This document shows positions 1 through 47,760 of a stretch of 64,000 nucleotides of DNA, one piece after another. The position numbers and the translations under genes were made by a program. The stretch lies in contig CAWGTS010000002.1 of NCBI GenBank assembly GCA_963825655.1, forward strand, positions 144,549 to 208,548, read 5' to 3'. The notes beneath the pieces are model-generated. The model did not search any database. It saw only the letters and a program-made list of their open reading frames with translations, and was not told where the DNA came from. The DNA comes from an uncultured Alphaproteobacteria bacterium. Its GTDB lineage: Bacteria; Pseudomonadota; Alphaproteobacteria; Rhizobiales; Methyloligellaceae. How positions within the stretch are numbered: the first letter of the stretch is position 1; the number at the start of each line of letters is the position of its first letter.

Positions 1-628
1 TCACTCGCCGCTCGAAGTTGGCCGCAACGTTTCGACCTGCCCGTCCGCGATGGGCGGCAAGGATCAGCAGCCCGCTTCGGTCGATCCCAAGGAGCCGAAC
101 CTGTTCTATGTGCCGACCAACAACTGGTGCATGGAGCTGGAGCCCCAGGAGCGCACGCACACCAACCAGGGCACGGTCTACGTGTTCGCCAACGTGTACA
201 TGTATCCCGAGAAGCCCGGCACCACCGGCAAGATCAAGAAGTACGACGTCTTGACCGGAAAGACGGTGTGGGAGATCCCGGATCCGTATCCGAACTGGAG
301 CGGCACCATGGTCACCGACGGCGGCCTGATGTTCTACGGTTCGCTCGGCGGCGACTTCCGCGCGGTCGACCGGAACTCGGGCAAGGTCCTGTGGAGCCGC
401 AAGCTCGCCTCCGGCATCATCGGCAATCCGATCACCTTTAAGGTGGGCGGCACGCAGTATGTCGGCATTTACTCCGGCATCGGCGGCTGGATCGGCCGTC
501 CGGTCACCGCGGGTCTGGATCTGAGTGACAAGTTCGGCGCCATCGGTGCCACCGCCATGACCAAGGCCGCTGGCCTGCAGCACGTGCCTCAGGGCGGCGC
601 GCTGAACGTCTTCCGCATCTACGAGTAG
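1..628 (+). CDS. xoxF: PQQ-dependent methanol dehydrogenase, XoxF-type, copy 1 (5' end outside window)
   Basis: Frame open from nt 2 (HSPLEVGRNVSTCPSAMGGKDQQP...GIGGWIG...NVFRIYE*). Matches the C-terminal 208 aa of 1339..3246 with 12 substitutions. Confidence 0.9.
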   Translation, partial: HSPLEVGRNVSTCPSAMGGKDQQPASVDPKEPNLFYVPTNNWCMELEPQERTHTNQGTVYVFANVYMYPEKPGTTGKIKKYDVLTGKTVWEIPDPYPNWSGTMVTDGGLMFYGSLGGDFRAVDRNSGKVLWSRKLASGIIGNPITFKVGGTQYVGIYSGIGGWIGRPVTAGLDLSDKFGAIGATAMTKAAGLQHVPQGGALNVFRIYE

Positions 629-1338: not shown

Positions 1339-3246
1339 ATGAAACTGAAGTATGGTGTTCTGGCCGGCACCCTCGTCGCAGTGACGATGGGTCTGTCTGG
1401 TCAGGCGTTAGCAAACACCGATGAGGAGCAGCTGAAGCGTATGGCTGATCCCGACCAGTGGCCTGCCCCTGGTCGTGATTTCGCGATGACGCGTCACAGC
1501 GAACTCTCCGACATCACCACCAAGAACGTGAACAAGCTGCAGATGGCTTGGCTGCAGGGCACCAACGCCCTTCGAGGTCACGAAGGCCAGCCGCTTGTGA
1601 TCAAGGACGTCGGCGGCAAGACCATGCTGTTCATGGTTTCCGGTTGCCCGTCCATGGCCAACTGTAACGTTGTGCAGGCTCTCGATCTTACGGATCCTGA
1701 CAACCCGAAGCAGGTTTGGTCCTACGTGAAGAAGACCGACCGTGACGAGTCGGCTGTGCCGCGCGCTTGCTGCGACACCGTCAACCGTGGCGGCTCCTAT
1801 GCCGATGGCAAGTTCGTGTATGGCACTCTCGACGGTTTCGTGATTGCCCTCGATGGCCAGACCGGTAAGGAAGTCTGGGTCGTCAAGTACGCCTATCCCG
1901 AGAAGGGCGAGACCATCACGCCGGCTCCGTTGATCGCCGACAATTTGGTGGTCATGGGCTTCGGTGGTGACGAGTTCGCTGCTCGTGGCCGCGTCGCCGC
2001 CTTCAATCTGTCGGACGGCTCCGAGGCTTGGGTGTGCCACAGCACGGGTTCCGACGAGGACGTGTGCCTGACGGCTGAGACCAACAAGGCCAATCCGCAC
2101 TTCGGTCAAGCCGGTCAGGATCTTGGCATCAAGACCTTCCCCGGCGAAGACTACAAGATCGGCGGTGGTGCTGCTTGGGGTTGGTTTACCTACGATCCCG
2201 AGCTGAAGCTGGTGTACTACTCGACCGGTAACCCCGGCCTGTGGAGCCCCCAGTATCGTTGCCCCGACAAGACCCACGAAGAATGCAACGAATTCGATTC
2301 CTCGATCGGTTCGGGCCCATTCGACAACAAGTGGTCGATGACCATCTTCGCTCGCAAGATCGAAAATGGTGAGGCTGTCTTCGCCTATCAGATGACTCCT
2401 TTCGATCAGTGGGACTATGACGGCATCAACGAGAACATCCTGACCGACATGAAGATCGACGGTAAGGATGTGAAGGCGCTTACTCACTTCGATCGTAATG
2501 GCTTTGCTTACGTGCTCGACCGTACCGACGGTACCCTTCTCCGCGCCACGAAATACGTGACGACGGACTGGGCCGAGAAGGTCGACATGAAGACTGGCCG
2601 TCCGGTCAAGGTGCGTGACCACTCGCCGCTCGAAGTTGGCCGCAACGTCTCTAGCTGCCCGTCCGCGATGGGTGGCAAGGACCAGCAGCCTGGTGCGGTC
2701 GATCCGAAGGAGCCGAACCTGTTCTACATGCCCACCAACAACTGGTGCATGGAGCTGGAGCCCCAGGAGCGCACGCACACGAACCAGGGCACTGTCTACG
2801 TGTTCGCGAACGTGTACATGTATCCTGAGAAGCCCGGCACCACCGGCAAAATCAAGAAGTACGACGTCCTGACTGGTAAGACCGTCTGGGAGATCCCGGA
2901 TCCTTACCCGAACTGGGGTGGTACAATGGTTACCGACGGTGGTCTGATGTTCTACGGTTCGCTTGGTGGCGACTTCCGCGCGGTCGACCGGAATTCCGGT
3001 AAGGTCCTGTGGAGCCGCAAGCTTGGTTCCGGCATCATCGGCAACCCGATCACCTACAAGGTGGGCGGTAAGCAGTATGTCGGCGTTTACTCCGGCATCG
3101 GCGGCTGGATCGGTCTTCCGGTCACCGCTGGTCTGGATCTGAGCGACAAGTTCGGCGCCATTGGTGCCACCGCCATGACCAAGGCCGCTGGCCTGCAGCA
3201 TATCCCGCAGGGTGGTGAACTGAACGTGTTCCGCATCTACGAGTAA
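1339..3246 (+). CDS. xoxF: Lanthanide-dependent PQQ methanol dehydrogenase, XoxF-type, copy 2 (clade possibly XoxF1, inferred)
   Basis: Signal peptide; vicinal CCDTVNRG; GGDEFAARG (metal Glu); TGNPG (metal Asn); WDYDG with the extra Asp diagnostic of Ln binding (MxaF has DYAG); GIGGW; RBS GGGAGAGG. Confidence 0.92.
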   Translation: MKLKYGVLAGTLVAVTMGLSGQALANTDEEQLKRMADPDQWPAPGRDFAMTRHSELSDITTKNVNKLQMAWLQGTNALRGHEGQPLVIKDVGGKTMLFMVSGCPSMANCNVVQALDLTDPDNPKQVWSYVKKTDRDESAVPRACCDTVNRGGSYADGKFVYGTLDGFVIALDGQTGKEVWVVKYAYPEKGETITPAPLIADNLVVMGFGGDEFAARGRVAAFNLSDGSEAWVCHSTGSDEDVCLTAETNKANPHFGQAGQDLGIKTFPGEDYKIGGGAAWGWFTYDPELKLVYYSTGNPGLWSPQYRCPDKTHEECNEFDSSIGSGPFDNKWSMTIFARKIENGEAVFAYQMTPFDQWDYDGINENILTDMKIDGKDVKALTHFDRNGFAYVLDRTDGTLLRATKYVTTDWAEKVDMKTGRPVKVRDHSPLEVGRNVSSCPSAMGGKDQQPGAVDPKEPNLFYMPTNNWCMELEPQERTHTNQGTVYVFANVYMYPEKPGTTGKIKKYDVLTGKTVWEIPDPYPNWGGTMVTDGGLMFYGSLGGDFRAVDRNSGKVLWSRKLGSGIIGNPITYKVGGKQYVGVYSGIGGWIGLPVTAGLDLSDKFGAIGATAMTKAAGLQHIPQGGELNVFRIYE

Positions 3247-3409: not shown

Positions 3410-5242
3410 GTGTCATCCCCCCAATTTTCCCTTACCGCGGTTCTGGCTGCGGGCATTCTCACTATCGGCATCGCGGCGGCGTCTGCTGCCGAAAGCAAGA
3501 CCGTTCAGCGCGACCTCAACAAGACGTATGAGGAGCTCACCCCGAGTGAGCACATCGCCATCCGGGCCGCGGCCAAGGCGGCCTACAAGGCCAAGAAGCT
3601 CAGGACGCTCAATATCTGCGCCGATCCCGGCAATATGCCGCTCTCGAACATGGAGAGAGAGGGTTTCCAGAACAAGCTGGCGAAGCTGCTCGCTGACGCC
3701 ACCGGCGCCGAGATCAAGTATCATTGGCAGCCCTTCATCGAGCGCGGGCTAACGCGCTCGACATTCGAAGAGCATTACTGCGACGTGATGTTCGATGTCC
3801 CATCGAACTATGATCGGCTTCTCACGACCGAGCCGATTTACAAGACGCCTTACGTGCTCGTTTATCGGAGCGACGAGGGGCTGGAACTTTCCGGGTTGGA
3901 CGATCCGAAGCTCAAGGATCTCAAGATCGGCGTGTTCCAGACTTCTGGCGTTCGCCGGGCCCTGGCCAAACGCGGCATCTTCGAGAACGTAGAGCTGCAG
4001 CTCCAGACCCACGATGGCGATCTGGTTCCCGAGAACCAGCCCTGGTACGTGATTCAGAAAATGCTCGACGGAAAGCTTGATGTGGCTGCCGTGTTCGGGC
4101 CCTTCGCCGGCTGGGTGAAGACCATGAAGAACGAGCCGATCGCGATCCAGCCGATCAATCTCGATGACGACACAGTGCAGATGGAGTTCGAGCTCGCGAT
4201 CGGCGTGCGTCCGACGGACGTCTTCCTCAAATATCTGCTCGATTGGGCGCTTGAGGATAACGCCGAGCAGGTCGAGGCGATTATGGAAGAGTACGGCGTC
4301 CCGCTCGTTCAGTGCAGCAAGTGCATCGTCCCGGGCAATCTGCCGGCCCATGGCAGCTACATCAAGCTCGCCGACCAGAAGTTCGAAGCGCGTCCCGACC
4401 TTGCCTCGCCCGATCAGATCGTGACGCAAGAGAAGCTGGAGGAGTGGCTGGCCGGAGGCGCCGACCCGCAGCAGGAGCTGAGCAACGCGCTCATCGCCAA
4501 TGATCACGATCGCATCATGTTCCTGGTCGGCAAAGGCGCCGACGTCAATAAGCGCGACTTGCAGGGGTGGACCCCGCTGACCAGCGCCGCGCGTCAGCGC
4601 CACGACAAAACGATCGATCTTTTGGTCGAGCTCGGGGCTGACCCCAATAAGCATGACGGCAACGGCATTACGCCACTCGCCGCCGCGCTGATGCGCGACC
4701 ATATTCCCTCGATCAAGACGCTGATCGATCACGGCGCCGATCTGGAAGAGCCTGGCCAGGACGGTTTCAGGCCGCTGGCACTGGCGATCGCGGAGCAGAA
4801 ATACGAGGCGGCAATGGCGCTTATGGAGGGGGGCGCCGATGTGAGCACGCCTTCCGGCAGCGAAGGTTTGACGCCGTTGATGATCGTTGCCGCCCAGACC
4901 GGCCCGGCGGAAGGCTCGATCTTTCTACCCGGCAGCACGCGGCCGACCGACCTCGCCAAGGCCTTGATCAACGAGGGCGCGGACGTGGACGCACAGGCCA
5001 AGAACGGCATGACGGCACTGATGATCGCGGCCGCCAACAACAGCGCTCCAATGATCGGACTGCTCATGGATGCGGGCGCCGATCCCACGGTGAAAAACGC
5101 CCGTGGCGAGACCGCCGAGGATGTCGCCAACCTCAATAACAACAAGGAAGCCTCCCAGGCGATCCGGGTGTTGTCCCTCTCGCGGGCAACCGTCCCGCCT
5201 CAGGCCTCGGACGCTGAAAGCGGAGACACGGCGAAACAGTGA
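3410..5242 (+). CDS. xoxJ: XoxJ/MxaJ-like periplasmic binding protein fused to C-terminal ankyrin repeats
   Basis: Signal peptide; ICADPGNMPLSN...GFQNKLAKLLA typical of MxaJ/XoxJ; about six ankyrin-type repeats (PL..A....LV..GADVN/ADPN). Confidence 0.8.
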   Translation: MSSPQFSLTAVLAAGILTIGIAAASAAESKTVQRDLNKTYEELTPSEHIAIRAAAKAAYKAKKLRTLNICADPGNMPLSNMEREGFQNKLAKLLADATGAEIKYHWQPFIERGLTRSTFEEHYCDVMFDVPSNYDRLLTTEPIYKTPYVLVYRSDEGLELSGLDDPKLKDLKIGVFQTSGVRRALAKRGIFENVELQLQTHDGDLVPENQPWYVIQKMLDGKLDVAAVFGPFAGWVKTMKNEPIAIQPINLDDDTVQMEFELAIGVRPTDVFLKYLLDWALEDNAEQVEAIMEEYGVPLVQCSKCIVPGNLPAHGSYIKLADQKFEARPDLASPDQIVTQEKLEEWLAGGADPQQELSNALIANDHDRIMFLVGKGADVNKRDLQGWTPLTSAARQRHDKTIDLLVELGADPNKHDGNGITPLAAALMRDHIPSIKTLIDHGADLEEPGQDGFRPLALAIAEQKYEAAMALMEGGADVSTPSGSEGLTPLMIVAAQTGPAEGSIFLPGSTRPTDLAKALINEGADVDAQAKNGMTALMIAAANNSAPMIGLLMDAGADPTVKNARGETAEDVANLNNNKEASQAIRVLSLSRATVPPQASDAESGDTAKQ

Positions 5243-6081
5243 TGGCAGTCTTCTCGCAAGTGCTGAGACGGGCAGGGGCCGCGGCGATAGCCGTGGCCTT
5301 CTGTCTAAGTATGGTCGCGTCCGTCTTTGCGGCCGACTATCCCGACTTCAACGACGAGTCGGTGACGAAAAGGACCGAGGAGATCATCAAGGAGCGTTCG
5401 AAGGACGGAGTGTTCGTTTTTCACGATCCAAAGCTCAATGAAGATCTCAATCTGGTCTATGAGAAGATCCGCGTCATTCGTGGCATGAAGGGCTATGGCT
5501 GGTTCGCCAACGCGATCTTTCACGACAAGGATGAGCCCAAGAAGCAATACGCGCTGGATTTCTGGTTTAAGCCCCAGACCGATAGCGACGAGCTCAAATT
5601 GATCGAAATCCGCGTGCAGAAAGGCCCTAAGCGCGACGGCGATAGCTGGATCATGATCACCCGGCTGCCGGTGGCCTGGTGGTGGCTGCCCGTGCAGGAG
5701 CACCCCGGCGATATGGAAGTCGTGCGCGCCTGGCACGTGATGAGCGCGATCCACAATTACATCACGGAGAACAGGAACGAAGACGGCGCCCTAGAGCTAA
5801 AGAACCCGAAGACGGGGGAAGTTATCCCCCTCGATTTCGTCGAGATGCACCAGCCGATCCGCTACTTGAAGAAGCAGGGTGAGTACTTCGCCTGCACGGA
5901 TTTCCGCAAGGCGGGCACCGAGAACGAGTATTACGACGTGGATTTCTGGGTGGACGAAAAGACCGGCCGGCTAAAGGTCTCGGACGTGAAAATCCACAAG
6001 GTTCCAGTCCAAGAGGATGGTATCTGGACCCAAGAAGACCTCTACACTTTCGAGGGCATGGACTTCGAAATCACCCAATAA
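5242..6081 (+). CDS. Secreted protein of unknown function with two homologous domains
   Basis: TGATG overlap with upstream stop (in-frame GTG at 5239 also possible); signal peptide ending VFA; internal duplication; host-like codon use. Confidence 0.85.
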   Translation: MAVFSQVLRRAGAAAIAVAFCLSMVASVFAADYPDFNDESVTKRTEEIIKERSKDGVFVFHDPKLNEDLNLVYEKIRVIRGMKGYGWFANAIFHDKDEPKKQYALDFWFKPQTDSDELKLIEIRVQKGPKRDGDSWIMITRLPVAWWWLPVQEHPGDMEVVRAWHVMSAIHNYITENRNEDGALELKNPKTGEVIPLDFVEMHQPIRYLKKQGEYFACTDFRKAGTENEYYDVDFWVDEKTGRLKVSDVKIHKVPVQEDGIWTQEDLYTFEGMDFEITQ

Positions 6082-6545: not shown

Positions 6546-7067
6546 GTGCGCAAAATCATCACTGGAGTACTGACGGTCGTTCTGTTGGGCGCCGTGAGTG
6601 TATTTGGCTTCAAGGCCATGGCAGAAGAGGAGTGCTGCCCGAAGGACGATCAGACCCCGCCGCTCGAGCTGATCGAAAAGACGCCGATCGGTGGTCTGCA
6701 CAACCCGTATAACGACGATCCCGCGGCCATGGAGGAAGCCGGTCACAAGAAGTACCTCTCCTTCAGCTGCAATGGCTGCCATGGCGGCGGCGGCGGCGGC
6801 GGCATGTGCCCCCCGCTGACCAACGATACCTTTGTCTATGGCGCTGACGACGACACGCTGTTTCGTCTGATCGCCCTTGGCTCGGACGATCTCCAAAAGC
6901 AGGGCTACACGCGCGTCAGGAAGGAGATCGTGACCGGTCCGATGCCGCCTTTTGGCAACATCATCAAGACCTCTGACGATTTGTGGAAGGTCATCGCTTG
7001 GATGCGCGTCAAGAATCCGGGTTCTGTGAAGGACGTGGACAAGCCCGCGCAGACGCCGGGCCAGTAG
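6546..7067 (+). CDS. xoxG: Cytochrome c, XoxG-like electron acceptor, copy 1
   Basis: Signal peptide; single CNGCH heme motif; GPMPPFG axial-Met region; position in xoxF cluster. Confidence 0.75.
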   Translation: MRKIITGVLTVVLLGAVSVFGFKAMAEEECCPKDDQTPPLELIEKTPIGGLHNPYNDDPAAMEEAGHKKYLSFSCNGCHGGGGGGGMCPPLTNDTFVYGADDDTLFRLIALGSDDLQKQGYTRVRKEIVTGPMPPFGNIIKTSDDLWKVIAWMRVKNPGSVKDVDKPAQTPGQ

Positions 7068-7130: not shown

Positions 7131-7435
7131 GTTTGCGTGGCATGCAGGCGCCGCGGCCAAGCACTTATTTATGACTTTCCTTCCGCTGCGGCGGCTGCCA
7201 TGGTGCCCGTGAGGAGCGGGGAATGTTTCCGCTCGCTGGCCACGCCGTAGGTCTAAGACGGTGACGCGTTGTTGGGGCTGGTCTGGGTCTAGCGAGAATC
7301 ACCAACATCTTTGACGGTCCGGCAAGGCTAACGCCTTTTCGATCGCCGACTGCGAACGTGCTGAAGCGCAGCGGGCGATACGCCTGCGCGACTTTATCGC
7401 CCCAAGATCATCCCTAGGGTAAGGAAACCGAAATC

Positions 7436-7954
7436 GTGAGCAAGATTATCACTGGAGTACTGGCCGCCGTTCTCGTTGGCGGTATGAGCCTGATTGCTGG
7501 GACGGCCACGGCAGAGGAGTGCTGTCCGAAGGATGACCAGACCCCGCCACTCGAGCTCATCGAGAAGACGCCCATCGGCGGTCTGCACAATCCCTATAAC
7601 GACGATGTCGATGCGATGGCCGAGATTGGACACAAGAAATATCTGTCCTTTAGCTGCAACGGCTGCCATGGCGGCGGCGGCGGCGGTGGCATGTGCCCGC
7701 CGCTGACCAACGACGCCTGGGTCTATGGCGCCGACGACGACACGGTTTTCAGGTTGATCGCTCTTGGCACCGACGAGCTCAAGAAGCAGGGCTACAAGCG
7801 CGTCCGCACGGAAGTGGTGGTCGGACCGATGCCGCCTTTCGGGACCATCATCAAGACCTCCGATGATCTTTGGAAGGTCATCGCCTTCATCCGTACGAAG
7901 AACCCCAGCTCCATGGAGAAGGTGAGCACGCCGGCACAGACGCCGGGCGAATAG
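7436..7954 (+). CDS. xoxG: Cytochrome c, XoxG-like, copy 2
   Basis: Paralog of 6546..7067 with the same CCPKDDQTPPLELIEKTPIGGLHNPY and CNGCHGGGGGGMCPPL; shared leader CTAGGGTAAGGAAAC. Confidence 0.75.
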   Translation: MSKIITGVLAAVLVGGMSLIAGTATAEECCPKDDQTPPLELIEKTPIGGLHNPYNDDVDAMAEIGHKKYLSFSCNGCHGGGGGGGMCPPLTNDAWVYGADDDTVFRLIALGTDELKKQGYKRVRTEVVVGPMPPFGTIIKTSDDLWKVIAFIRTKNPSSMEKVSTPAQTPGE

Positions 7955-7976
7955 CGCGCGCGGATTTGCATTTTGG

Positions 7977-8010
7977 AGGGCCGCCGCACCCATCGGGCCG
8001 GCGGCCTTTC
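7977..8010 (+). terminator. Intrinsic terminator
   Basis: GGCCGCCG...CGGCGGCC-TTTC, related to the hairpin after copy 1. Confidence 0.65.
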
Positions 8011-8215
8011 TGCTTCCTGAAACATTGGTAATGTTTTTACCACGGCCTGGAAGGGTGTGGTCGAAGTCCATATATTCGTTCAAGAATTCCAGCTCGGCCC
8101 GCTGGCGATTTGGTTGCCATATTGTGCGGTGCGCATTGCCAATCGGTAGCAGGTCTGAGACAGAAGAGCGCCCAGCTCCGGAACACCTCCCATAACCGGA
8201 AACGTTCAGAGAGAC

Positions 8216-9610
8216 ATGCAGCCTTTGCCTCCGCCCCTTTCCCGTGACCCGCGCGCTCCTTGTTTGGGAGCGGTCCTCGCCGGCGTCTTTTTCATTTCGA
8301 CGATTGCCGGAAGCGCCATTGTGGCCGCGCAGGATGCGCCGCCGGCCGCCGGCACGCCCCAAGCAGGCGACACGTCTAAAGACAGCGACACGCCGAAAGC
8401 CACCGAGGCGCCGGCCAAGCCCGACGAGGCCGCCGAGAAGGCTCCCGCACCCGCCGAGGACACGGCCGCCGAAGACAAAGCCGACGACAAGAAGCTGATG
8501 CGAGTCTACTACCTCGGCAAGGAATACGACGAGCCGCTGCCGCTCTCTTATGCCGAGGAGATCATCACCGACAAAGGCATCCAGGGCGCGCGCCTCATGG
8601 AGAAGGAGGCGAACCAGGCCGGCAATTTCATCGGCTACGAGTTCAAGCTCGAAGAAGGCATCGTGCCCAAGGACGGCGACGTGGTCGCCAAGGCCAAGGA
8701 GGCGCTGGCCGCCGGCCACCGTTTCATCCTTGCCGATCTGGAGCCCGACGATCTGCTCGCGGTGGCGGATCTGCCGGAGGCCAAGAACGCGCTCATCCTC
8801 AACATTCGTTCCAGCGCCACGAAGTTGCGCCAGGAGGAATGCCGCAGCAACGTCTTCCACATCATTCCCGACTACGCCATGCGCGCCGACGCGCTTGCGC
8901 AATATCTGATCTGGAAGAAATGGCCCCGCTGGTTCGTCATCCGCCGGGACACCGAAAAGGATCAGGACTATCTGGCCCAGGTGAAGCGCTCGGCCGCCCG
9001 CTATGGCGGCAAGGTGGTCGAGGACCATGTCTACGACCTGCCGCCCGGCGCGCGGAACCTCGACTCCGGCCATCAGCAGATCCAGACGCAGATGCCCATG
9101 GAGACCGAAAGCGCGCCGGAGCACGACGTGGTTTGGGTGATCAACAGCGACGACGATTTCGGCGACTATCTGATGTACCGCACCTACACCCCGCGTCCCG
9201 TGGTCGGCACCCAAGGGCTTCAGGCGACCGCGTGGGACAAGTCCTACACGGAATCCGGCGCCATGCATTTCCAGAACGCGATCCCCCGCATCGCCGACCG
9301 AAAGCCTGTCGAGCGCGACTACACCGCCTGGCTCGGCTTCCGCGCACTCGCCGACGCCGCCATGAAGTCCGGCAAGGTCAAGCCGAAAGACGTCAAGAAA
9401 TACATGCTGTCCGACGACTTCAAGCTCGAGGCCTTCAAGGGCCAGGCGCTGAGCTTCCGCGATTGGGATCAGCAGATGCGCCAGCCGATCATCCTCGGCG
9501 GCGGCACGCGTGTCCCGGTCTCGACGTCGCCCCAGGAAGGCTTCCTGCACCAGACCAATCTCACCGATACGCTCGGCTTCGATAAGCCCGAGTCCAAATG
9601 CAAGTTCTAA
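8216..9610 (+). CDS. ABC transporter substrate-binding protein of PQQ alcohol-dehydrogenase systems (PedA1-like)
   Basis: Signal peptide and acidic Ala/Pro linker; LNIR...LR.E.CR.NVFH..P..AMRADALAQYL..KKW.RW and LSFR.WD.Q.RQP motifs recognised from this family. Confidence 0.8.
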   Translation: MQPLPPPLSRDPRAPCLGAVLAGVFFISTIAGSAIVAAQDAPPAAGTPQAGDTSKDSDTPKATEAPAKPDEAAEKAPAPAEDTAAEDKADDKKLMRVYYLGKEYDEPLPLSYAEEIITDKGIQGARLMEKEANQAGNFIGYEFKLEEGIVPKDGDVVAKAKEALAAGHRFILADLEPDDLLAVADLPEAKNALILNIRSSATKLRQEECRSNVFHIIPDYAMRADALAQYLIWKKWPRWFVIRRDTEKDQDYLAQVKRSAARYGGKVVEDHVYDLPPGARNLDSGHQQIQTQMPMETESAPEHDVVWVINSDDDFGDYLMYRTYTPRPVVGTQGLQATAWDKSYTESGAMHFQNAIPRIADRKPVERDYTAWLGFRALADAAMKSGKVKPKDVKKYMLSDDFKLEAFKGQALSFRDWDQQMRQPIILGGGTRVPVSTSPQEGFLHQTNLTDTLGFDKPESKCKF

Positions 9611-9635
9611 TGCCCATCCAACTGAAGGTAGACCC

Positions 9636-10640
9636 ATGACTCGTATTAGTCTTGCCGGGGCCTCCGCTGCGGCGCTGCTTCTGTTCGCCGTCCCGTCCCA
9701 CGCCGAGACCATCTTCGTCTCCAACGAGAAGGACAACACGGTCACCGTCATCGACGGCGAGACCCTGAAGACGATCAAAACCGTCGAGACCGCGCGTCGG
9801 CCGCGCGGCATCGTCCTGAGCCCGGACAACAAGGAGCTGTTCGTGGCCGCCGGCGACGGCGACATCATCGATGTGGTCGACACGGCAAAGCTGGAAGTCG
9901 TGCGCACGCTGGAATCGGGACCCGATCCCGAGCTCATGGCCGTCGATTCCAAAGGTGACGTCATCTACATCGCCAACGAGGACGATAGTTTGGTCACCGT
10001 CATGAACATCGCCAGCGGCGAGGTTCTGGGCGAGGTGCCCGTCGGCGTCGAACCGGAGGGCATGATCGTAAGTCCGGACGATCGCTACACCGCCGCCACG
10101 TCCGAGAGTACCAGCATGGCGCATATCATCGACAACGCGACGATCAAGCTGGTGGGCAACATCCTCGTCGACAGCCGCCCCCGAGAGGTCAAGTTCTCGA
10201 AGGACATGAAGGAGCTTTGGGTCTCCTCGGAGATCGGCGGCACGGTCTCCATCGTCGACACCAGCGATTGGGACAATCCCCAGAACTGGAAAGTCATCAA
10301 GAAGATCAGCTTCGAGGTCCCGGGGTTGCGCCCTGAGCAGCTTCAGCCCGTCGGCATGGACTTCGACGAGGACCATGGCCGCATCTTCGTTCCGTTGGGG
10401 CCGGCCAATCGGGTCGCGGTGATCGATGCGAAGAAGAAGGAAGTCATTGACTACGTCCTCGTGGGCCAGCGACCCTGGCACGGCGAGTTCAGCCCCGACT
10501 ATAAGAAGTATTATGTCGCCAACGGTCTCACCAACGACCTGACGGTGATCGACGCGGAAACCTTGAAGGCCGAGAAGTCGGTGCCGGTGGGGCGTCTGCC
10601 TTGGGGTGTCGCCGTCATGCCCGGCAAGCCGGGCGAATAG
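9636..10640 (+). CDS. PQQ-catabolism-associated YVTN beta-propeller protein (PedA2-like)
   Basis: Signal peptide then ETIFVSNEKDNTVTVID; repeats such as PELMAV, VGVEPEG, VGQRPW, VANGLTND, VGRLPWG. Confidence 0.85.
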   Translation: MTRISLAGASAAALLLFAVPSHAETIFVSNEKDNTVTVIDGETLKTIKTVETARRPRGIVLSPDNKELFVAAGDGDIIDVVDTAKLEVVRTLESGPDPELMAVDSKGDVIYIANEDDSLVTVMNIASGEVLGEVPVGVEPEGMIVSPDDRYTAATSESTSMAHIIDNATIKLVGNILVDSRPREVKFSKDMKELWVSSEIGGTVSIVDTSDWDNPQNWKVIKKISFEVPGLRPEQLQPVGMDFDEDHGRIFVPLGPANRVAVIDAKKKEVIDYVLVGQRPWHGEFSPDYKKYYVANGLTNDLTVIDAETLKAEKSVPVGRLPWGVAVMPGKPGE

Positions 10641-10655
10641 GGCCGCCACGGCCGG

Positions 10656-11351
10656 CTAATCGCTGCGGACGCGCCGGCCGATGAACTGGGCGACCGCTTC
10701 CGCGGCGAGGATCGCGCCGAGCGAGATCGCGACCGACACGAGCGTGAGGCGCAACGCGCCCGCGTCGCCGCCGGGCACCTGCGTGAAGGTGTAGATCAGG
10801 CTCGGCAGGGTCTGCGTCTCGCCGGGGATGTTCGAAACGAAGGTGATGGTCGCGCCGAACTCGCCCACGGACCGGGCGAAGGCGAGAATCGCGCCGGCAA
10901 TGATCCCGGGCGCGATCAGGGGCAGCGTCACCGTGAGGAACACGTAAGCCCGGCTGGCGCCGAGCGTGCTTGCCGCCTGCTCGAGCCGCCGGTCCACCGC
11001 CTCCACCGACAGCTGAATGGCGCGGACGAGAAGCGGAAACCCCATGATGGCGCAGGCCAGCGCCGCGCCCGTCCAGCGGAAGGCGATTACGATCCCGAAC
11101 GTCTCGTAGAGCCAGCTGCCGATCGGGCCTTGGCGGCCGAACAGCAGCAAGAGCACGTAACCTGTCACCACCGGCGGCAGCACCAGCGGCAGAAGCACCA
11201 ACGCGTTGAGGAGAGGGCGCCCCCAAAACCGGCCTCTCCCGATCAGCATGGCGACCGCGATGCCAACGGGCAGGCTTACGAGCGTCGCCACCGCGGCGAC
11301 GCGGAGAGAGAGCTTGATGGCGGTGAGTTCCTCGGGGGTGAGGCTCAGCAC
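10656..11351 (-). CDS. modB: Molybdate ABC transporter permease
   Basis: LPLVLPPVVTGY; EAA-like loop LEQAASTLGA; FARSVGEFGATITFVSNIPGETQTLP. Confidence 0.92.
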   Translation of the reverse strand: MLSLTPEELTAIKLSLRVAAVATLVSLPVGIAVAMLIGRGRFWGRPLLNALVLLPLVLPPVVTGYVLLLLFGRQGPIGSWLYETFGIVIAFRWTGAALACAIMGFPLLVRAIQLSVEAVDRRLEQAASTLGASRAYVFLTVTLPLIAPGIIAGAILAFARSVGEFGATITFVSNIPGETQTLPSLIYTFTQVPGGDAGALRLTLVSVAISLGAILAAEAVAQFIGRRVRSD

Positions 11352-11375
11352 GGAAGGACGACTTCGCCGTGCGGC

Positions 11376-11660
11376 CTAGCCCGGATCCTCCCGTCCGCCG
11401 CTTGCGTCGCATTTTGCGGTGCTCGGCAGATATTCCGGATCCTTTTTCTCATCGCGGAGCAACTCGATCGCGCGGAGCGAGGGCCCTTCGAGGCCCTTGC
11501 CGCCAGTTTGCTCCATATAATCGATGATCGCCCGGCGCATGCGCAAGTCCCAGAATAGGCAAAGATGGTTCGCGATCTCCTCGGCCGGGTCTTCGCCGCG
11601 CTGATATTTGAAGTAATCGCCAATCTGATTGGCCATCGCGACGAGGCGTTCGGGCTGCAT
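11376..11660 (-). CDS. fdsD: NAD-dependent formate dehydrogenase delta subunit
   Basis: MQPERLVAMANQIGDYF...IANHLCLFWDLRMR; start reassigned to the ATG at 11660. Confidence 0.88.
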   Translation of the reverse strand: MQPERLVAMANQIGDYFKYQRGEDPAEEIANHLCLFWDLRMRRAIIDYMEQTGGKGLEGPSLRAIELLRDEKKDPEYLPSTAKCDASGGREDPG

Positions 11661-11701
11661 AGGCCGGGCTCTCCGTGAGGTGAGGGAAGGGAAGCGGGAG
11701 C

Positions 11702-14548
11702 TTACTCCGCCGCCACCAGAGGCTCGGCGATGCGCCGCGCGGCCTTCGACAGTTCCTCGTATTCCTCCTGCCACTCGGACGGCCCGTTGGACGGCGCGAC
11801 CTGCACGGCCGTCACCTTGTACTCGGGGCAATTCGTGGCCCAGTCGGAATTCTCGGTGGTGACCACGTTGGCTTGCGTGTTCGGGTGGTGGAACGTCGTG
11901 TAGACCACGCCCGGCGCCACGCGATCGGTGATCAGCGCCCGCAAGGTGGTCTCACCGGCGCGGCTCGCGATCTTGACCCAGTCGCCGTCGCGCACGCCGC
12001 GGTTCTCGGCGTCGTGGGGATGGATCTCCAGGCGATCCTCCTCGTGCCACACCACGTTGGCGGAGCGCCGCGTCTGCGCGCCCACATTGTATTGAGACAA
12101 GATGCGGCCCGTGGTGAGCAACAGCGGGAAGCGCGGGCCGGTTCTCTCATCCGTCGCCACGTATTCGGTGATGACGAACTTGCCCTTGCCGCGGACGAAG
12201 TGATCCATGTGCATCACAGGCATGCCTTCCGGCGCCTGCTCGTTGCAGGGCCATTGCACCGAACCGAGCTTGTCCAGCGTCTCGTAGGAGACGCCAGTGA
12301 AGGTCGGGGTCAGGCGCGCGATCGCGTCCATGATCTGCGAGGGATGATCGTACTGCATGGGATAGCCCAGCGCGTTGGATAGAAGCTGGGTGATCTCCCA
12401 ATCCTCGTAGCCGTTGATCGGCGCCATCACCTTGCGCACGCGCTGAATGCGGCGCTCGGCGTTGGTGAACGTGCCGTTCTTCTCCAGGAAGGTGGAGCCC
12501 GGCAGGAACACATGGGCGTAGTTCGCGGTCTCGACCAGGAACAGGTCCTGCACCACCACGCATTCCATCGCGGCGAGGCCGGCGGCCATGTGCTTGGTGT
12601 TCGGGTCGGACTGAAGGATGTCCTCGCCTTGGATGTAGAGGCCCTTGAACGAGCCGTCGAGCGCGGCGTCGATCATGTTGGGAATGCGCAAGCCGGGCTC
12701 GTCGTCGAGCGGACGGCCCCAAGCACTCTCGAACTCTTCGCGGGCCTGGGTATTGGAGACGTGCCGGTAGCCGGCGAACTCGTGCGGGAACGAGCCCATG
12801 TCGCAGGAGCCCTGCACGTTGTTCTGGCCGCGCAACGGGTTCACGCCCACGCCTTCGCGGCCGATATTGCCGGTCGCCATGGCGAGGTTGGCGATGGCCA
12901 TGACCGTGGTCGAGCCTTGGCTGTGCTCGGTGACGCCGAGGCCGTAATAGATGGCGCCGTTGCCGCCGGTGGCATAGAGCCGGGCGGCGCCGCGGATGGA
13001 TTCCGCCGGAACGCCGGTAATCTTCTCCACCGCCTCGGGCGCGTGGCGCGGCTCGGACACGAAGCGCGCCCAATCCTGAAACTCGTCCCAGTCGCAGCGC
13101 TCGCGTACGAAGTCCTCGTCCACCAGCCCCTCGGTCACGACCACATGGGCCAGAGAGGTGACCAGGGCGACGTTGGTGCCGGGCTGTAGCGGCAGATGGT
13201 AATCGGCTTGGATGTGCGGCGTGCGCACCAGGTCGATCCGGCGTGGGTCGGCGATGATCAGCTTGGCGCCTTCGCGCAGGCGCTTCTTCATGCGCGAGGC
13301 GAACACCGGATGACCGTCGGTCGGGTTGGCGCCGATGATGAGGACGATGTCGGTCTGCTCGACGGAGTTGAAGTCCTGCGTTCCGGCGCTCGTGCCGTAC
13401 GTGGTCTTGAGACCGTAGCCCGTGGGCGAATGGCAGACGCGGGCGCACGTGTCCACGTTGTTATTGCCGAAGGCGGCGCGGATCAGCTTCTGCACCAGGA
13501 ACGTCTCTTCGTTGGTGCAGCGCGAGGAGGTGATGCCGCCGATCGAGTTCCTGCCGTATTTGGCTTGGATGCGCTTGAACTCGGACGCCGTGTACTGGAT
13601 GGCCTCCTCCCAGGAAACCTCCCGCCACGGATCGGTGATCTTCTCGCGGATCATCGGCTTGGTGATGCGGTCCTTGTGGTGCGCGTAGCCGTAAGCGAAG
13701 CGGCCCTTCACGCAGGAATGTCCGCGATTGGCTTTGCCCTCTTTGTGAGGGATCATGCGCACCAGCTCGTCGCCGCGTATCTCCGCGCGGAAGGTGCAGC
13801 CCACGCCGCAATAGGCGCAGGTGGTGACGACCGAGCGGTCCGGCGTGCCGATATCGATGACCGACTTCTCGTTGAGCGTCGCGGTGGGGCAGGCCTGCAC
13901 GCAGGCGCCGCACGACACGCACTCGGAATCGATGAACGCCTCTTCCATGGAGGGTGAGACCACGGAGGAGAAGCCGCGTCCGGCGATGGTGAGCGCGAAG
14001 GTGCCCTGCACCTCCTCGCAAGCCCGCACGCAGCGCGAGCAGACGATGCACTTGGAAGGCTCGTAGGTGAAATAGGGGTTGGAAGCGTCGATGCCCGGGT
14101 TGGGGTGCCGCGCGCCTTCGTAGCCGTAGCGCACGTCGCGCAGGCCCACGGCGCCGGCCATGTCCTGCAGCTCGCAGTCGCCATTGGCCGAGCAAGTCAG
14201 GCAGTCGAGCGGATGCTCCGAGATATAGAGCTCCATGACGCCCTTACGCAGCTGCTTGAGGCGGTTGGTCTGGGTCTTGACCACCATGCCGTCGGCGGCC
14301 GGTGTGGTGCACGAGGCCGGCGTTCCGTTGCGGCCCTCGACCTCCACCAGACAAAGCCGGCAAGACCCGAACGATTCGACCATGTCGGTGGCGCAGAGCT
14401 TGGGGATCTGGGTCCCCACCTCCATGGCCGCGCGCATGATCGAGGTGCCCTCGGGCACCTCCACCGCGACGCCGTCGATGGTGAGGGTCACGAGCTTCTC
14501 GGACTTCGATTCTGGCGTCCCGTAGTCGATTTCCGGGTTCAAAGGCAT
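11702..14548 (-). CDS. fdsA: NAD-dependent formate dehydrogenase alpha subunit
   Basis: N-terminal Fe-S motifs; CAYCGVGC; active-site CARVCH (Cys, not Sec); RGQNNVQG. Confidence 0.95.
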   Translation of the reverse strand: MPLNPEIDYGTPESKSEKLVTLTIDGVAVEVPEGTSIMRAAMEVGTQIPKLCATDMVESFGSCRLCLVEVEGRNGTPASCTTPAADGMVVKTQTNRLKQLRKGVMELYISEHPLDCLTCSANGDCELQDMAGAVGLRDVRYGYEGARHPNPGIDASNPYFTYEPSKCIVCSRCVRACEEVQGTFALTIAGRGFSSVVSPSMEEAFIDSECVSCGACVQACPTATLNEKSVIDIGTPDRSVVTTCAYCGVGCTFRAEIRGDELVRMIPHKEGKANRGHSCVKGRFAYGYAHHKDRITKPMIREKITDPWREVSWEEAIQYTASEFKRIQAKYGRNSIGGITSSRCTNEETFLVQKLIRAAFGNNNVDTCARVCHSPTGYGLKTTYGTSAGTQDFNSVEQTDIVLIIGANPTDGHPVFASRMKKRLREGAKLIIADPRRIDLVRTPHIQADYHLPLQPGTNVALVTSLAHVVVTEGLVDEDFVRERCDWDEFQDWARFVSEPRHAPEAVEKITGVPAESIRGAARLYATGGNGAIYYGLGVTEHSQGSTTVMAIANLAMATGNIGREGVGVNPLRGQNNVQGSCDMGSFPHEFAGYRHVSNTQAREEFESAWGRPLDDEPGLRIPNMIDAALDGSFKGLYIQGEDILQSDPNTKHMAAGLAAMECVVVQDLFLVETANYAHVFLPGSTFLEKNGTFTNAERRIQRVRKVMAPINGYEDWEITQLLSNALGYPMQYDHPSQIMDAIARLTPTFTGVSYETLDKLGSVQWPCNEQAPEGMPVMHMDHFVRGKGKFVITEYVATDERTGPRFPLLLTTGRILSQYNVGAQTRRSANVVWHEEDRLEIHPHDAENRGVRDGDWVKIASRAGETTLRALITDRVAPGVVYTTFHHPNTQANVVTTENSDWATNCPEYKVTAVQVAPSNGPSEWQEEYEELSKAARRIAEPLVAAE

Positions 14549-14558
14549 TTGGGCTTCC

Positions 14559-16115
14559 TCATTCAGCAGCTTCTAGGCGCTTCTTGGTGGCGCCGAAATC
14601 TTCGGGAAAATGGGTCAATGCGCTCATCACGGGATACGGCGTGAAGCCGCCAAGAGCGCAAAGGGATCCCCATTTCATTGTGTCGCAAAGGTCTTCGAGC
14701 ACGGCCAGATTGGACTCCCGGTCCTGATCGGCAATGATCTTGTCCATCAGTTCCATGCCGCGGGCGGAGCCGATCCGGCAGGGCGTGCACTTGCCGCAAG
14801 ACTCCACGGCGCAGAACTCCATGGCGAAGCGGGCCTGCTGGGCCATATCCACCGTGTCGTCGAACACCACGATTCCGCCATGGCCGATCAGCCCGTCGAC
14901 GGCCGTGAAGGCCTCGTAGTCGAACGGCGTGTCGAACAGCGCGCGCGGCATATACGCGCCGAGCGGACCGCCTACCTGGACCGCGCGCACGGGCCGGCCC
15001 GAATAGGTGCCGCCGCCGATCTCGTCCACCAGCTCGCCGAGCGTGATGCCGAAGGCCGTTTCGTAGAGGCCGCCATGCTTGATATTGCCGGCGAGTTGGA
15101 TGGGCATGGTGCCGCGCGACTTGCCCATGCCGAAATCGCGATAATACTCGCCGCCCTTGTCCAGGATCAGCGGCACGGAGGCGAGCGACAGCACGTTGTT
15201 GATGATCGTGGGCTGACCGAACAGGCCGACATGGGCCGGAAGCGGCGGCTTGGCGCGCACTTCGCCGCGCTTGCCTTCCAGGCTGTCCAGCAGCGAGGTC
15301 TCCTCGCCGCACACATAGGCGCCGGCGCCGAGCCTGACTTCCATGTCGTAGGCATGGCCTGAGCCCATGACGTTGTCGCCGAGGAAGCCGGCCTTGCGCG
15401 CTTCCTCGATGGCGATGTTCAGGCTCTCGAAGGCGTGGGGGTATTCGGAGCGGAGATAGATGTAGCCGTAGGTGGCGCCCACCGCGATGCCGGCGATGGT
15501 CATGCCTTCGATCAGCACGAGGGGATCGCCTTCCATGATCATGCGGTCGGCGAACGTGCCGCTATCGCCTTCGTCGGCGTTGCAGACGATGTATTTTTGC
15601 TGAGGTGGCGTCTCGGAGACCGTGCGCCATTTGATGCCTGTGGGAAATCCCGCGCCGCCACGGCCGCGCAAGCCTGAGGTCAGAACCTCCTCGATAATGG
15701 TCTTCGGGCCGCCGTCGATGGCTTTCTTCAGGCCTTCATAGCCGCCATGAGCCTGGTAATCCTCGACCGAGCGCGGATCGATGATGCCGCAGCGGGCGAA
15801 AGTGAGGCGGGTCTGGTTCTTGATCCACGGATATTCGTCCACCAAGCCGATGCATGTCTCGTGCGGCTTGCCGTCGAGCATGCCGGCAGCGATGAGATCG
15901 CCGACCTTCGAAGCCTTGACCGGCCCGTAGCCGACGCGGCCCTCGGGCGTCTCGACCTCGACCAGCGGCTCCAGCCAATACATGCCGCGTGAACCCGTGC
16001 GCACGATCTCCACATCGAGACTGCGGTCCTTGGCCTCGTCGCGGAACTTCTTCGCGACGGCCTCGGCGCCCACGCAGAGCGCGCCGGAATCGCGGGAGAT
16101 AAAGATGCGGGTCAC
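14559..16115 (-). CDS. fdsB: NAD-dependent formate dehydrogenase beta subunit (NuoF-like)
   Basis: SGLRGRGGAGFPTG; CNADEGD; GAGAYVCGEET; ESCGKCTPCR. Confidence 0.95.
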   Translation of the reverse strand: MTRIFISRDSGALCVGAEAVAKKFRDEAKDRSLDVEIVRTGSRGMYWLEPLVEVETPEGRVGYGPVKASKVGDLIAAGMLDGKPHETCIGLVDEYPWIKNQTRLTFARCGIIDPRSVEDYQAHGGYEGLKKAIDGGPKTIIEEVLTSGLRGRGGAGFPTGIKWRTVSETPPQQKYIVCNADEGDSGTFADRMIMEGDPLVLIEGMTIAGIAVGATYGYIYLRSEYPHAFESLNIAIEEARKAGFLGDNVMGSGHAYDMEVRLGAGAYVCGEETSLLDSLEGKRGEVRAKPPLPAHVGLFGQPTIINNVLSLASVPLILDKGGEYYRDFGMGKSRGTMPIQLAGNIKHGGLYETAFGITLGELVDEIGGGTYSGRPVRAVQVGGPLGAYMPRALFDTPFDYEAFTAVDGLIGHGGIVVFDDTVDMAQQARFAMEFCAVESCGKCTPCRIGSARGMELMDKIIADQDRESNLAVLEDLCDTMKWGSLCALGGFTPYPVMSALTHFPEDFGATKKRLEAAE

Positions 16116-16585
16116 GACTGCGCCTCCCTGAGCAGCTCATCGAGCCGCTCTTCGTCCAGCGCGCCGTAAACGTCGTGATCGAGCATCGCGGCAGGCGAGG
16201 AGTGGCACAGGCCGAGGCAGTAGACCGGCTCCAGCGTCACGCGGCGGTCCGCGGTGGTGCCGCCCATGTCCACGCCGAGCTTCTCGCATGCGCGCTTTTC
16301 GAGCGCCCGCCCGCCGGAAGCCTGACAGGACTCGGCGAGGCAAAGCTTCAGGGTTCGGCGGCCGCCCGGCTCGCGCTTGAAGTCGTGATAAAAGGTCACG
16401 CAGCCATGCACCTCGGCGCGCGAGATATTGAGCACATTGGCGATCATCGGCTCGGCCGCGAGCGGTACGCAGCCGAAGGCGTCCTGCAAGGCGTGCAGAA
16501 TTGGGAGCGTGGCGCCCTTTTGATCCTGATGCTGCGCGATGATTTCGCTCGCGCGCTCAGGCGTCCATGGTTCATGTCGTGGCAT
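16112..16585 (-). CDS. fdsG: NAD-dependent formate dehydrogenase gamma subunit (NuoE-like)
   Basis: CLAESC and CLGLC 2Fe-2S motifs; overlaps the fdsB start. Confidence 0.93.
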   Translation of the reverse strand: MPRHEPWTPERASEIIAQHQDQKGATLPILHALQDAFGCVPLAAEPMIANVLNISRAEVHGCVTFYHDFKREPGGRRTLKLCLAESCQASGGRALEKRACEKLGVDMGGTTADRRVTLEPVYCLGLCHSSPAAMLDHDVYGALDEERLDELLREAQS

Positions 16586-44960: not shown

Positions 44961-45050
44961 GAGAGGAAAACTACCGTGAACCGCGATAGTTCGGCCTTGA
45001 TCTGGATCAGTCTGAGTGTTGGTTCTCAACGCGTCAGCGTCCCAATCGCG

Positions 45051-46106: not shown

Positions 46107-46367
46107 CTAGCGACCGAGCGCTTGACGTTTACGGTTCACTTCTGCCTGAGAGACGGCGCCGGCCTGGATCAGTCCTTTGACGCACCGTTTGCTCAAATAA
46201 TTCCCGTGGGCGCGCATGCAATTCTGCAAGCCTCTGGTCTCAAGTCCCCATTGGCCGCAGAACCGCCGGTAGTCTTCTGCGCATTTTCTCTTGCCGGCCT
46301 CGGCCGTGCTCACGGCGCCGACGATCACAGCAAAGACAATGAGCAGAATTGCGCGATGGTACGTCAT
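46107..46367 (-). CDS. Small secreted four-Cys protein (86 aa)
   Basis: Signal peptide (AEA); C..DYRRFC...C..H..LS..C cysteine-rich-repeat pattern. Confidence 0.75.
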   Translation of the reverse strand: MTYHRAILLIVFAVIVGAVSTAEAGKRKCAEDYRRFCGQWGLETRGLQNCMRAHGNYLSKRCVKGLIQAGAVSQAEVNRKRQALGR

Positions 46368-47028: not shown

Positions 47029-47067
47029 GCGAGCTTTTGGTGGCGGGCCTCTCGGGCCCGCCGCTTT

Positions 47068-47754: not shown

Positions 47755-47760
47755 GACGGA

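Follow-up and report, generated by a model that had tools for sequence, protein, structure and literature searches.

Architecture of the xoxJ-ank gene product

The window, that is, the whole stretch of DNA that was analysed, comprises 64,000 nucleotides (nt) from an uncultured alphaproteobacterium of the Methyloligellaceae (assembly GCA_963825655.1, contig CAWGTS010000002.1, positions 144,549 to 208,548 of the forward strand). Near its start lies xoxJ-ank, a gene situated directly downstream of xoxF, which encodes a methanol dehydrogenase of the type dependent upon a lanthanide and pyrroloquinoline quinone (PQQ). The product combines a periplasmic binding-protein domain of the MxaJ/XoxJ type, a short cysteine-containing segment termed here the Cys knuckle, a flexible linker and an ankyrin-repeat domain. 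Homologues occur in a long form, which includes the window protein, and a short form. Among the long open reading frames (ORFs) at this position, xoxJ-ank alone had database support. An AAGG sequence is located 11-14 nt 5' of the GTG start codon, and homologues of 599-613 amino acids (aa) start at the identical position. The features of the gene are as follows.

3410-5242, forward strand: xoxJ-ank, whole ORF, 610 aa plus stop, GTG start
3410-3490, forward strand: predicted Sec signal peptide, aa 1-27, with cleavage between AASA and AE, read from the sequence
3491-3604, forward strand: N-terminal helix region, aa 28-65, LTPSEHIAIRAAAKAAYK, long form only, from two alignments
3605-4309, forward strand: MxaJ/XoxJ-type periplasmic binding-protein domain, aa 66-300, from TIGR03871 and from sequence and fold matches in PDB
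4301-4360, forward strand: Cys knuckle, aa 298-317, PLVxCxxCxVxGDLPxHGxY, from the 108-sequence alignment and the model
4361-4426, forward strand: variable flexible linker, aa 318-339, from low conservation and low model confidence
4427-5188, forward strand: ankyrin-repeat domain of seven helix-pair repeats, aa 340-593, from Pfam, AlphaFold2 and Foldseek
4898-4942, forward strand: 15-aa insertion within repeat 5, aa 497-511, GPAEGSIFLPGSTRP, long form only, poorly modelled

The N-terminus, MSSPQFSLTAVLAAGILTIGIAAASA followed by AE, is hydrophobic with an AxA site and reads as a Sec signal peptide, an assignment made by eye rather than from the output of a predictor. An AlphaFold2 monomer model was built from an alignment of 108 homologues sharing 33-95% identity with xoxJ-ank and gave a mean predicted local distance difference test (pLDDT) score of 84.6 and a predicted template modelling (pTM) score of 0.56. 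It supersedes an earlier model based upon 39 close homologues, for which pLDDT was 71.9 overall and 25-36 across the knuckle and linker. In the later model, residues 1-31 scored below 50, as did the repeat-5 insertion, and a helix was formed by residues 45-61, within the region (aa 28-65) that is missing from the short form.

The binding-protein domain

Residues 67-300 matched the full length of TIGR03871 (ABC_peri_MoxJ_2) with 225.7 bits against a cutoff of 212.15 (E 5.8e-67), and reached 109.8 bits, under the cutoff of 258.1, with the strict MoxJ model TIGR03870. Sequence matches in PDB included XoxJ of Methylorubrum extorquens (6onp, E 8e-33) and MxaJ (9ism_B, E 4e-26). Both of these chains stop at '...YGVPL(L/V)', which corresponds to residue 300 of xoxJ-ank; since canonical J chains end here, everything beyond this residue represents an extension. 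The N-terminal half was modelled with pLDDT 85-97 as a type-II periplasmic binding-protein fold, and Foldseek placed it closest in PDB to XoxJ 6onp (template modelling (TM) score 0.89, root mean square deviation 2.3), followed by MxaJ 5sv6 (TM 0.80) and 9ism_B (TM 0.79). Two cysteines within the domain, C70 and C124, are invariant.

In databases the family carries the name 'quinoprotein dehydrogenase-associated putative ABC transporter substrate-binding protein', in which the reference to an ATP-binding cassette (ABC) transporter is a family label and not a finding. Taken literally, the name would make xoxJ-ank the substrate-binding protein of a transporter linked to the quinoprotein dehydrogenase, with PQQ, a lanthanide chelate or a product as examples of what might be imported, and with the ankyrin repeats as an accessory docking module. 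The type-II fold would suit such a role. Against this, the solved relative MxaJ binds the dehydrogenase subunit MxaF and not a transporter (PMC12276312), and no cognate ABC ATPase or permease was present beside xoxJ-ank in the window or among the called genes of four related loci (L081-L084). The sole permease nearby is ModB, which belongs to a molybdate system and is encoded on the opposite strand beside formate dehydrogenase. A transport function is therefore considered very improbable.

The Cys knuckle and linker

No part of the protein is more strongly conserved than the segment that follows the binding-protein domain. Across the 108-sequence alignment, P298, L299, C302, C305, G309, H314 and G315 are invariant and D310, L311, P312 and Y317 reach 90% conservation or more, giving the consensus GVPLVxCxxCxVxGDLPxHGxY and the pattern Cys-x2-Cys-x8-His. 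Mean column conservation was 0.79 for the knuckle (aa 298-317), the highest of all segments, compared with 0.67 for the binding-protein domain, 0.59 for the ankyrin domain and 0.37 for the linker (aa 318-339). Residues 301-320, which include C302-S-K-C305 and H314, are ordered in the 108-homologue model (pLDDT 82-92), and residues 321-340 are flexible (pLDDT 58-62). The knuckle was found in Methyloligella, Hyphomicrobium and Xanthomonas and, as CPEC...H, on a Methylacidimicrobium-like contig; it was not seen in the solved XoxJ and MxaJ chains compared (6onp and 9ism_B).

Three roles come into question for the knuckle: that of a structural disulfide, that of a redox pair and that of a Cys2-His metal site. 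An explanation that places it at the centre holds that the knuckle is the functional core, being redox-active or metal-binding (for example in formation of the strained vicinal Cys-Cys disulfide of XoxF1, or in binding Zn or Cu), and that the ankyrin repeats only position it; such a role would be compatible with that of a chaperone. YHS is a putative metal-binding domain. Some homologues of p280, the protein encoded immediately downstream, are labelled 'YHS domain-containing protein', and the invariance of C302, C305 and H314, together with the order of the segment in the deep-alignment model, points in the same direction. Binding of PQQ has also been found to reshape the disulfide-ring region of MxaF while MxaJ is bound (PMC12276312). 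However, the same vicinal disulfide is made in MxaF and in other XoxF clades, whose J proteins do without the motif, only three ligands are obvious, and a periplasmic CxxC may be a mere structural disulfide. A knuckle-centred function consequently seems improbable, with a small but real chance of being correct.

The ankyrin-repeat domain

Exported ankyrin-repeat proteins are uncommon in bacteria. In xoxJ-ank the repeats were detected by five Pfam models over approximately aa 357-600, with E values ranging from 1e-29 to 6e-17 (Ank_2, 1.1e-29; Ank_4, 1.1e-27; Ank, 6.6e-27; plus Ank_3 and Ank_5). In the AlphaFold2 model seven helix-pair repeats begin near aa 353, 389, 422, 455, 489, 536 and 569 at a spacing of about 33 residues, the fifth of which holds the poorly modelled 15-residue insertion. 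Foldseek matched the C-terminal half to ankyrins and designed ankyrin-repeat proteins (DARPins) with E values of about 1e-16. The original prediction, made from the sequence alone, had proposed an MxaJ/XoxJ-type domain, a linker containing CSKC and about six ankyrin repeats, roughly doubling the usual length. TIGR03871, Pfam, AlphaFold2 and Foldseek confirmed this order of parts; the CSKC is C302-S-K-C305, and at 610 aa the protein is about twice as long as the canonical XoxJ and MxaJ chains of 284-300 aa. The repeat count was close, the model yielding seven when capping repeats are included.

The positions that contact targets in canonical ankyrin domains show conservation inside each form. 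Retained in the long form are Q385, W387, R395, Q396 and R397 of repeat 2 and M428, R429, D430 and H431 of repeat 3; in repeat 3 of the short form, Trp is conserved at positions 5 and 13. Form-specific conservation of this kind agrees with co-evolution between the ankyrin domain and a partner.

The partner might also be internal. Here the ankyrin domain would fold back upon the cleft of the binding-protein domain as an autoinhibitory lid, released when XoxF1 arrives in its apo form. The long linker is flexible and variable enough to permit this (conservation 0.37, pLDDT 58-62), and intramolecular autoinhibition is found in eukaryotic ankyrins, one of which (5y4e) was among the fold matches. 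The model contains no confident interdomain contact (pTM 0.56), however, and autoinhibition is regarded as the least probable of the explanations considered here.

The insertion in repeat 5 carries the motif xEGxxFLPGSTRP in Methyloceanibacter, Methyloligella and those Hyphomicrobium loci that also bear p280. Hyphomicrobium loci without p280 have a different insertion at this point. The motif tracks p280 only in part.

Distribution of the fusion

More than 120 clusters at 90% identity, with proteins of 590-635 aa, emerged from a protein search; they share 66-95% identity with xoxJ-ank and have the same Pfam content. Scanning of genomes, one per species, identified 428 relatives, and the analysis of loci was carried out on the best 80 of these 428. 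All 80 span essentially the whole protein with the same full-length architecture; they derive from Methyloceanibacter, Methyloligella (sp. GL2 and M. solikamskensis) and Hyphomicrobium, including H. zavarzinii ATCC 27496, and the closest is that of Methyloceanibacter marginalis R-67177 (95%). The source of the window is accordingly related to Methyloceanibacter. An exhaustive search of representative sequences added approximately 12 further full-length fusions at 34-55% identity, amid giant ankyrin proteins of eukaryotic type.

The short form (533-591 aa) is without the N-terminal helix and the repeat-5 insertion, and a profile retrieved many more clusters of it. Among them are RefSeq entries from many Xanthomonas species, including one named 'MoxJ protein [Xanthomonas arboricola]', and a 539-aa protein is encoded on a Methylacidimicrobium-like contig (L101). 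The domain-architecture check therefore revealed a recurrent fusion and not a one-off. The 108 aligned sequences keep an identical layout down to 33% identity, with the knuckle most conserved, from which the fusion as a whole is judged to be under purifying selection.

Four proteins (P0131, P0144, P0168 and P0202) that were considered as unfused relatives proved to be frameshifted fusions, with Arg-rich out-of-frame tails derived from the GC-rich ankyrin region, and so do not speak for a split form. Frameshifted gene calls of this family can pass for unfused or novel architectures. No second, unfused MoxJ-like gene was detected in the window or the 80 loci. A second copy of xoxJ-ank lies a few kb upstream of the first in two Hyphomicrobium loci (L069, 696-2453; L066, 5-649), and these copies are 47-49% identical to the window protein.

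No paper describing a XoxJ/MoxJ-ankyrin fusion was found in a full-text literature search, most subscription journals lying outside its coverage, though the architecture is very common in sequence databases, RefSeq Xanthomonas entries included, and public databases have listed it for years with nothing more than a generic name. The search thus did not turn up the prior description that the original prediction had named as refuting it. The protein is a widespread and undescribed variant of a known accessory protein, namely a putative chaperone of the XoxJ/MxaJ kind with a conserved knuckle-ankyrin module tied to the XoxF1 clade.

Genomic neighbourhood

The genes and signals surrounding xoxJ-ank, from a partial xoxF to a beta-propeller protein, are arranged in the following order.

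1-628, forward strand: 3' end of a second tandem xoxF copy, running off the window edge, with 91% nt identity to 2620-2919
1339-3246, forward strand: xoxF, XoxF1-type lanthanide/PQQ methanol dehydrogenase, 635 aa, TIGR03075 540.6 bits
3276-3313, forward strand: 13-bp GC-rich hairpin plus T tract between xoxF and xoxJ-ank
5239-6081, forward strand: p280, exported protein of 280 aa, whose GTG start overlaps the xoxJ-ank stop (GTGA)
6546-7067, forward strand: XoxG-like cytochrome c, copy 1, CNGCH then Gly7-MCPP
7436-7954, forward strand: XoxG-like cytochrome c, copy 2
8216-9610, forward strand: TIGR03863-like binding protein of a PQQ-dehydrogenase system, 387.7 bits, under the 413.6 cutoff
9510-10640, forward strand: TIGR03866 'PQQ-dependent catabolism-associated' beta-propeller

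After the other xoxF copy, at 654-683, comes an almost identical hairpin, likewise of 13 bp, GC-rich and with a T tract, and the true start of the propeller gene is probably near 9636. A tandem xoxF pair comparable to that of the window has been reported in Methyloceanibacter caenitepidi Gela4 (GL4_1360/1361; PMC6417678).

Neighbours were counted among the best 80 of 428 genome loci, using only loci with enough flanking sequence. XoxF was encoded directly upstream of xoxJ-ank in 59 of 60 loci. Downstream, a cytochrome c was present in 64 of 67, p280 in 52 of 67, the beta-propeller in all 59 and the TIGR03863 protein in 58 of 59. The link to XoxF drawn in the original prediction is thereby upheld, with a XoxG-like cytochrome c nearly always downstream. 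Beyond this set, a Xanthomonas locus (L081) carries a XoxF-like gene, 60% identical to the window XoxF and overlapping the fusion gene by 4 nt, followed by xoxJ-ank, cytochrome c, the propeller, a Zn-dependent dehydrogenase, a TonB receptor and a sigma-54 activator. On a metagenome contig from the Joint Genome Institute (JGI; L083), XoxF (71%), xoxJ-ank and cytochrome c have a RuBisCO cluster as their neighbour.

The constancy of the downstream genes bears upon an alternative in which the ankyrin domain binds the XoxG-like cytochrome c, the TIGR03866 propeller or the TIGR03863 protein rather than XoxF1, and so forms the scaffold of an electron-transfer or maturation complex. Loci of the short form, both that of Xanthomonas and that of the Methylacidimicrobium-like contig, likewise include cytochrome and propeller, and the XoxG-XoxJ fusion reportedly made by Methylacidiphilum, cytochrome cGJ, implies that J and G proteins can work in proximity. 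Conversely, three Hyphomicrobium loci (L073, L077 and L080) have the fusion and XoxF without an adjacent cytochrome c, and the JGI contig has no propeller within 8 kb. Binding of one of these downstream proteins in place of XoxF1 is accordingly rated as unlikely, while deserving serious attention.

The original prediction had further named p280, by position 5242 (the gene begins at 5239), among the proteins to be modelled together with the fusion. As a general partner of the ankyrin repeats p280 was rejected, since the fusion is kept in lineages without it; the gene is missing from Methyloligella, many Hyphomicrobium, Xanthomonas and the verrucomicrobial-type locus. Sequence searches of Pfam, NCBIfam and PDB gave no match for p280. 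It apparently consists of two similar halves, 'YALDFWFKP...IEIRVQKGP' and 'YYDVDFWVDEKTGRLKV...IHKVP', and nearly all of its 858 homologues are annotated as 'hypothetical', a few longer ones (338-361 aa) being those labelled 'YHS domain-containing'.

Both XoxG-like cytochromes of the window are tandem paralogues in which the haem motif CNGCH is directly followed by seven glycines and MCPP; the Gly-rich motif recurs in Methyloligella, Hyphomicrobium and Methylacidimicrobium-like homologues. On the reverse strand at 10656-16585 lie ModB, a molybdate permease, and then a formate dehydrogenase linked to nicotinamide adenine dinucleotide (alpha subunit 948 aa, NuoF-like subunit 518 aa, gamma subunit 157 aa), so that the last part of the C1 oxidation pathway is encoded right next to the xox genes. 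An 856-aa ORF antisense to the cytochrome c and TIGR03863 genes (7394-9964, reverse strand) is of low complexity and rich in Arg, Gly and Ala, and is almost certainly an artefact of GC content rather than a gene. Elsewhere on the reverse strand, 42897-45029 encodes a 710-aa protein with a protein-L-isoaspartate O-methyltransferase domain (aa 47-243) and an erythromycin-esterase-family domain (aa 336-688), and 46107-50703 holds about six small genes (199-234 aa) arranged head to tail, with matches to Sulfotransfer_2 for three or more of them. The rest of the window is occupied by housekeeping genes.

The neighbouring methanol dehydrogenase

Among methanol dehydrogenases the XoxF enzymes are the most widely distributed, and among lanthanide enzymes they are the best known. 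The closest PDB match to the window XoxF (1339-3246) was 7o6z (E 3.5e-255), ahead of the XoxF2 enzyme 4mae (6e-166) and the XoxF5 enzyme 6oc5 (3e-140). The structure 7o6z is that of the XoxF1-type enzyme of Methylacidimicrobium thermophilum AP8, which has a diagnostic extra Asp in 'GGDEF' (PMC8546591). The corresponding 'GGDEFAARG' of the window protein aligns with 'GGDEFGARG' of 7o6z, and the lanthanide-ligand DYD is present in 'QWDYDG'; the Cys that makes room for the extra Asp in 7o6z is replaced by Ala. By these sequence characters the window enzyme is of the XoxF1 type.

The Methylacidimicrobium-like contig, which was fetched using the 7o6z sequence, opens with the last 16 residues of that enzyme at 100% identity and continues with the 539-aa protein of XoxJ, CPEC knuckle and ankyrin repeats, then a cytochrome c, with the propeller on the opposite strand. 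In AP8 itself xoxF1, xoxJ and xoxG are consecutive, the middle gene being described as a periplasmic substrate-binding protein, and xoxJ was expressed at a lower level than xoxG (PMC7907005). The window, Xanthomonas, the JGI contig and the Methylacidimicrobium-like contig share the order xoxF, xoxJ-ank, cytochrome c. As far as gene and protein sequences can tell, the fusion goes together with enzymes of the XoxF1 type in Alphaproteobacteria, Gammaproteobacteria and a verrucomicrobial-type lineage.

At approximately residues 100-110 the window XoxF has a loop insertion, 'SGCPSMANCN' (SGCPxMAxCN), with two cysteines. It was present in all five long-form loci examined and in none of three XoxF proteins accompanying the short form (Xanthomonas, the JGI contig and Methylacidimicrobium-type), a comparison confounded by phylogeny. 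The loop may be a co-evolving interface or may reflect shared ancestry, and is noted as a lead only.

Proposed function

Assembly of the methanol dehydrogenase MxaFI has recently been reconstituted by Zhou et al. in 2025, who found that MxaJ binds MxaF about tenfold more tightly than does the small subunit MxaI, that PQQ binds only the MxaF/MxaJ complex, with a dissociation constant of approximately 77 nM, that the L8 loop of MxaJ pulls the 'roof sheet' of MxaF off the PQQ pocket and that MxaI afterwards displaces MxaJ (PMC12276312). Maturation of XoxF has not been worked out yet, although the same authors take the existence of xoxJ to suggest the same mechanism (PMC12276312). In M. extorquens AM1, loss of xoxJ mimics the loss of xoxF1 and xoxF2 together when La3+ is present (PMC7391723). 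The remark in the original prediction that XoxJ function is unresolved is therefore partly outdated by the MxaJ work, and its suggestion of a chaperone for XoxF maturation has gained firmer ground from that work. The roles of scaffold and of XoxF-cytochrome docking that it also put forward are conjectural, so that its interpretation is supported in part.

We propose that xoxJ-ank is the XoxJ of XoxF1 clusters, that its N-terminal half is a PQQ-insertion chaperone and that the knuckle-ankyrin module supplies a second protein-binding surface, the likeliest target of which is XoxF1; this proposal, taken whole, is held to be slightly more probable than its converse. The protein would be exported to the periplasm by the Sec pathway, where, by analogy with MxaJ and MxaF and in keeping with the position of its gene, the N-terminal half would bind newly folded XoxF1 and hold the lid of the active site open, allowing PQQ to enter. 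The knuckle would be packed against the end of the binding-protein domain, followed by the flexible linker and the seven-repeat ankyrin solenoid, which would serve as a protein-binding surface. XoxF1 is the best guess for the target bound by this surface, as it is the most consistent neighbour and XoxF enzymes are without MxaI. A second contact made by the ankyrin repeats, for example on the XoxF1 dimer, might strengthen capture of the enzyme or control its release. The hairpin that follows each xoxF copy and the lower xoxJ transcript level of AP8 agree with a helper protein produced less abundantly than the enzyme.

Several observations weigh against this proposal. The residues with which the L8 loop of MxaJ grips MxaF are kept only in part: in the alignment R161 is replaced by E208, N162-Q163 correspond to N209-Q210, and the stretch containing Tyr164 falls in a 5-residue deletion. 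Within the L8-loop region P211 is the sole residue conserved at 80% or above over the 108 sequences. Apart from R395, the long and short forms together share almost only the structural ankyrin consensus, so that one universal binding surface on the repeats is not evident. Adjacency does not single out XoxF1 as the partner either, because cytochrome c and the propeller are nearly as constant as neighbours. The model lacks a confident orientation between the two domains, and with a pTM of 0.56 the relative placement of the halves is undefined. Expression evidence for the source strain amounts to a single 223-nt metatranscriptome contig identical to 4571-4793, which is too thin to address co-transcription, and no RNA runs from the source organism were found.

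A wider reading would make xoxJ-ank the hub of XoxF1 maturation instead of a chaperone that binds only transiently. The ankyrin domain would then hold XoxF1, the cytochrome or the propeller, and release of the chaperone would be coupled to arrival of the electron acceptor, replacing the step performed by MxaI, and at the channel through which PQQ enters the knuckle would serve as a switch of the redox or metal kind. This elaboration is thought distinctly unlikely; were it true, it would constitute a new mechanism for the control of cofactor insertion and a defining trait of the XoxF1 clade.

How XoxF enzymes acquire PQQ and metal, and how XoxJ is released without a small subunit, are open questions (PMC12276312). 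A natural XoxJ-ankyrin fusion conserved across a clade offers a handle on release without MxaI and makes it experimentally approachable: the partner should be traceable through the ankyrin domain, and the invariant knuckle should lead to a step for which other clades may have a different solution. There is also a consequence for annotation, as labels such as 'ABC transporter substrate-binding protein' or plain 'xoxJ' hide half of the protein, in entries that include the plant pathogen genus Xanthomonas and verrucomicrobial-type methanotrophs.

Comparison with known systems

The likely functional template for xoxJ-ank is MxaJ of M. extorquens (9ISM/9ISO; PMC12276312), which holds the lid of its client open for PQQ insertion. 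The two proteins share the type-II fold (TM 0.79, sequence E 4e-26), two conserved cysteines within the domain and a gene position beside a PQQ methanol dehydrogenase large subunit and a cytochrome. They differ in that MxaJ, at 300 aa, stops where the extension begins and has neither the CxxC...His knuckle nor ankyrin repeats, and in that the L8 loop of xoxJ-ank is five residues shorter with Glu for Arg161. The client of MxaJ is the Ca-dependent MxaF, from which it is displaced by MxaI, whereas XoxF enzymes are without MxaI.

The best structural match to the N-terminal half is XoxJ of M. extorquens AM1 (6ONP), from a XoxF5-type cluster, at approximately 30% identity. Like xoxJ-ank, it is the accessory of a lanthanide-dependent XoxF, and it is needed for XoxF-dependent growth (PMC7391723); unlike xoxJ-ank, it is a single-domain protein of 284 aa that serves a different XoxF clade. 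The gene order in AM1 is xoxF-xoxG-xoxJ (gene numbers 1740-1742), compared with xoxF-xoxJ-(p280)-xoxG in the window.

Fusion of XoxJ to another periplasmic module is not confined to the present case. Cytochrome cGJ of Methylacidiphilum fumariolicum SolV, from a XoxF2-type system, is said to be a XoxG-XoxJ fusion; there the module joined to XoxJ is the electron-accepting cytochrome and not a repeat domain. For the ankyrin half a parallel is found in AnkB of Pseudomonas aeruginosa, which is reportedly periplasmic. AnkB is encoded beside an enzyme in katB-ankB, and its loss lowers the activity of the KatB catalase (PMC2830190). Both are thus bacterial ankyrin proteins encoded beside an enzyme, AnkB being needed for the full activity of its own. 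In contrast to xoxJ-ank, AnkB stands alone without a binding-protein domain and its client, a haem catalase, is unrelated. Precedents accordingly exist for each ingredient of xoxJ-ank, in the XoxJ-cytochrome fusion and in the AnkB-KatB pair, and nothing in it departs from known kinds of biology.

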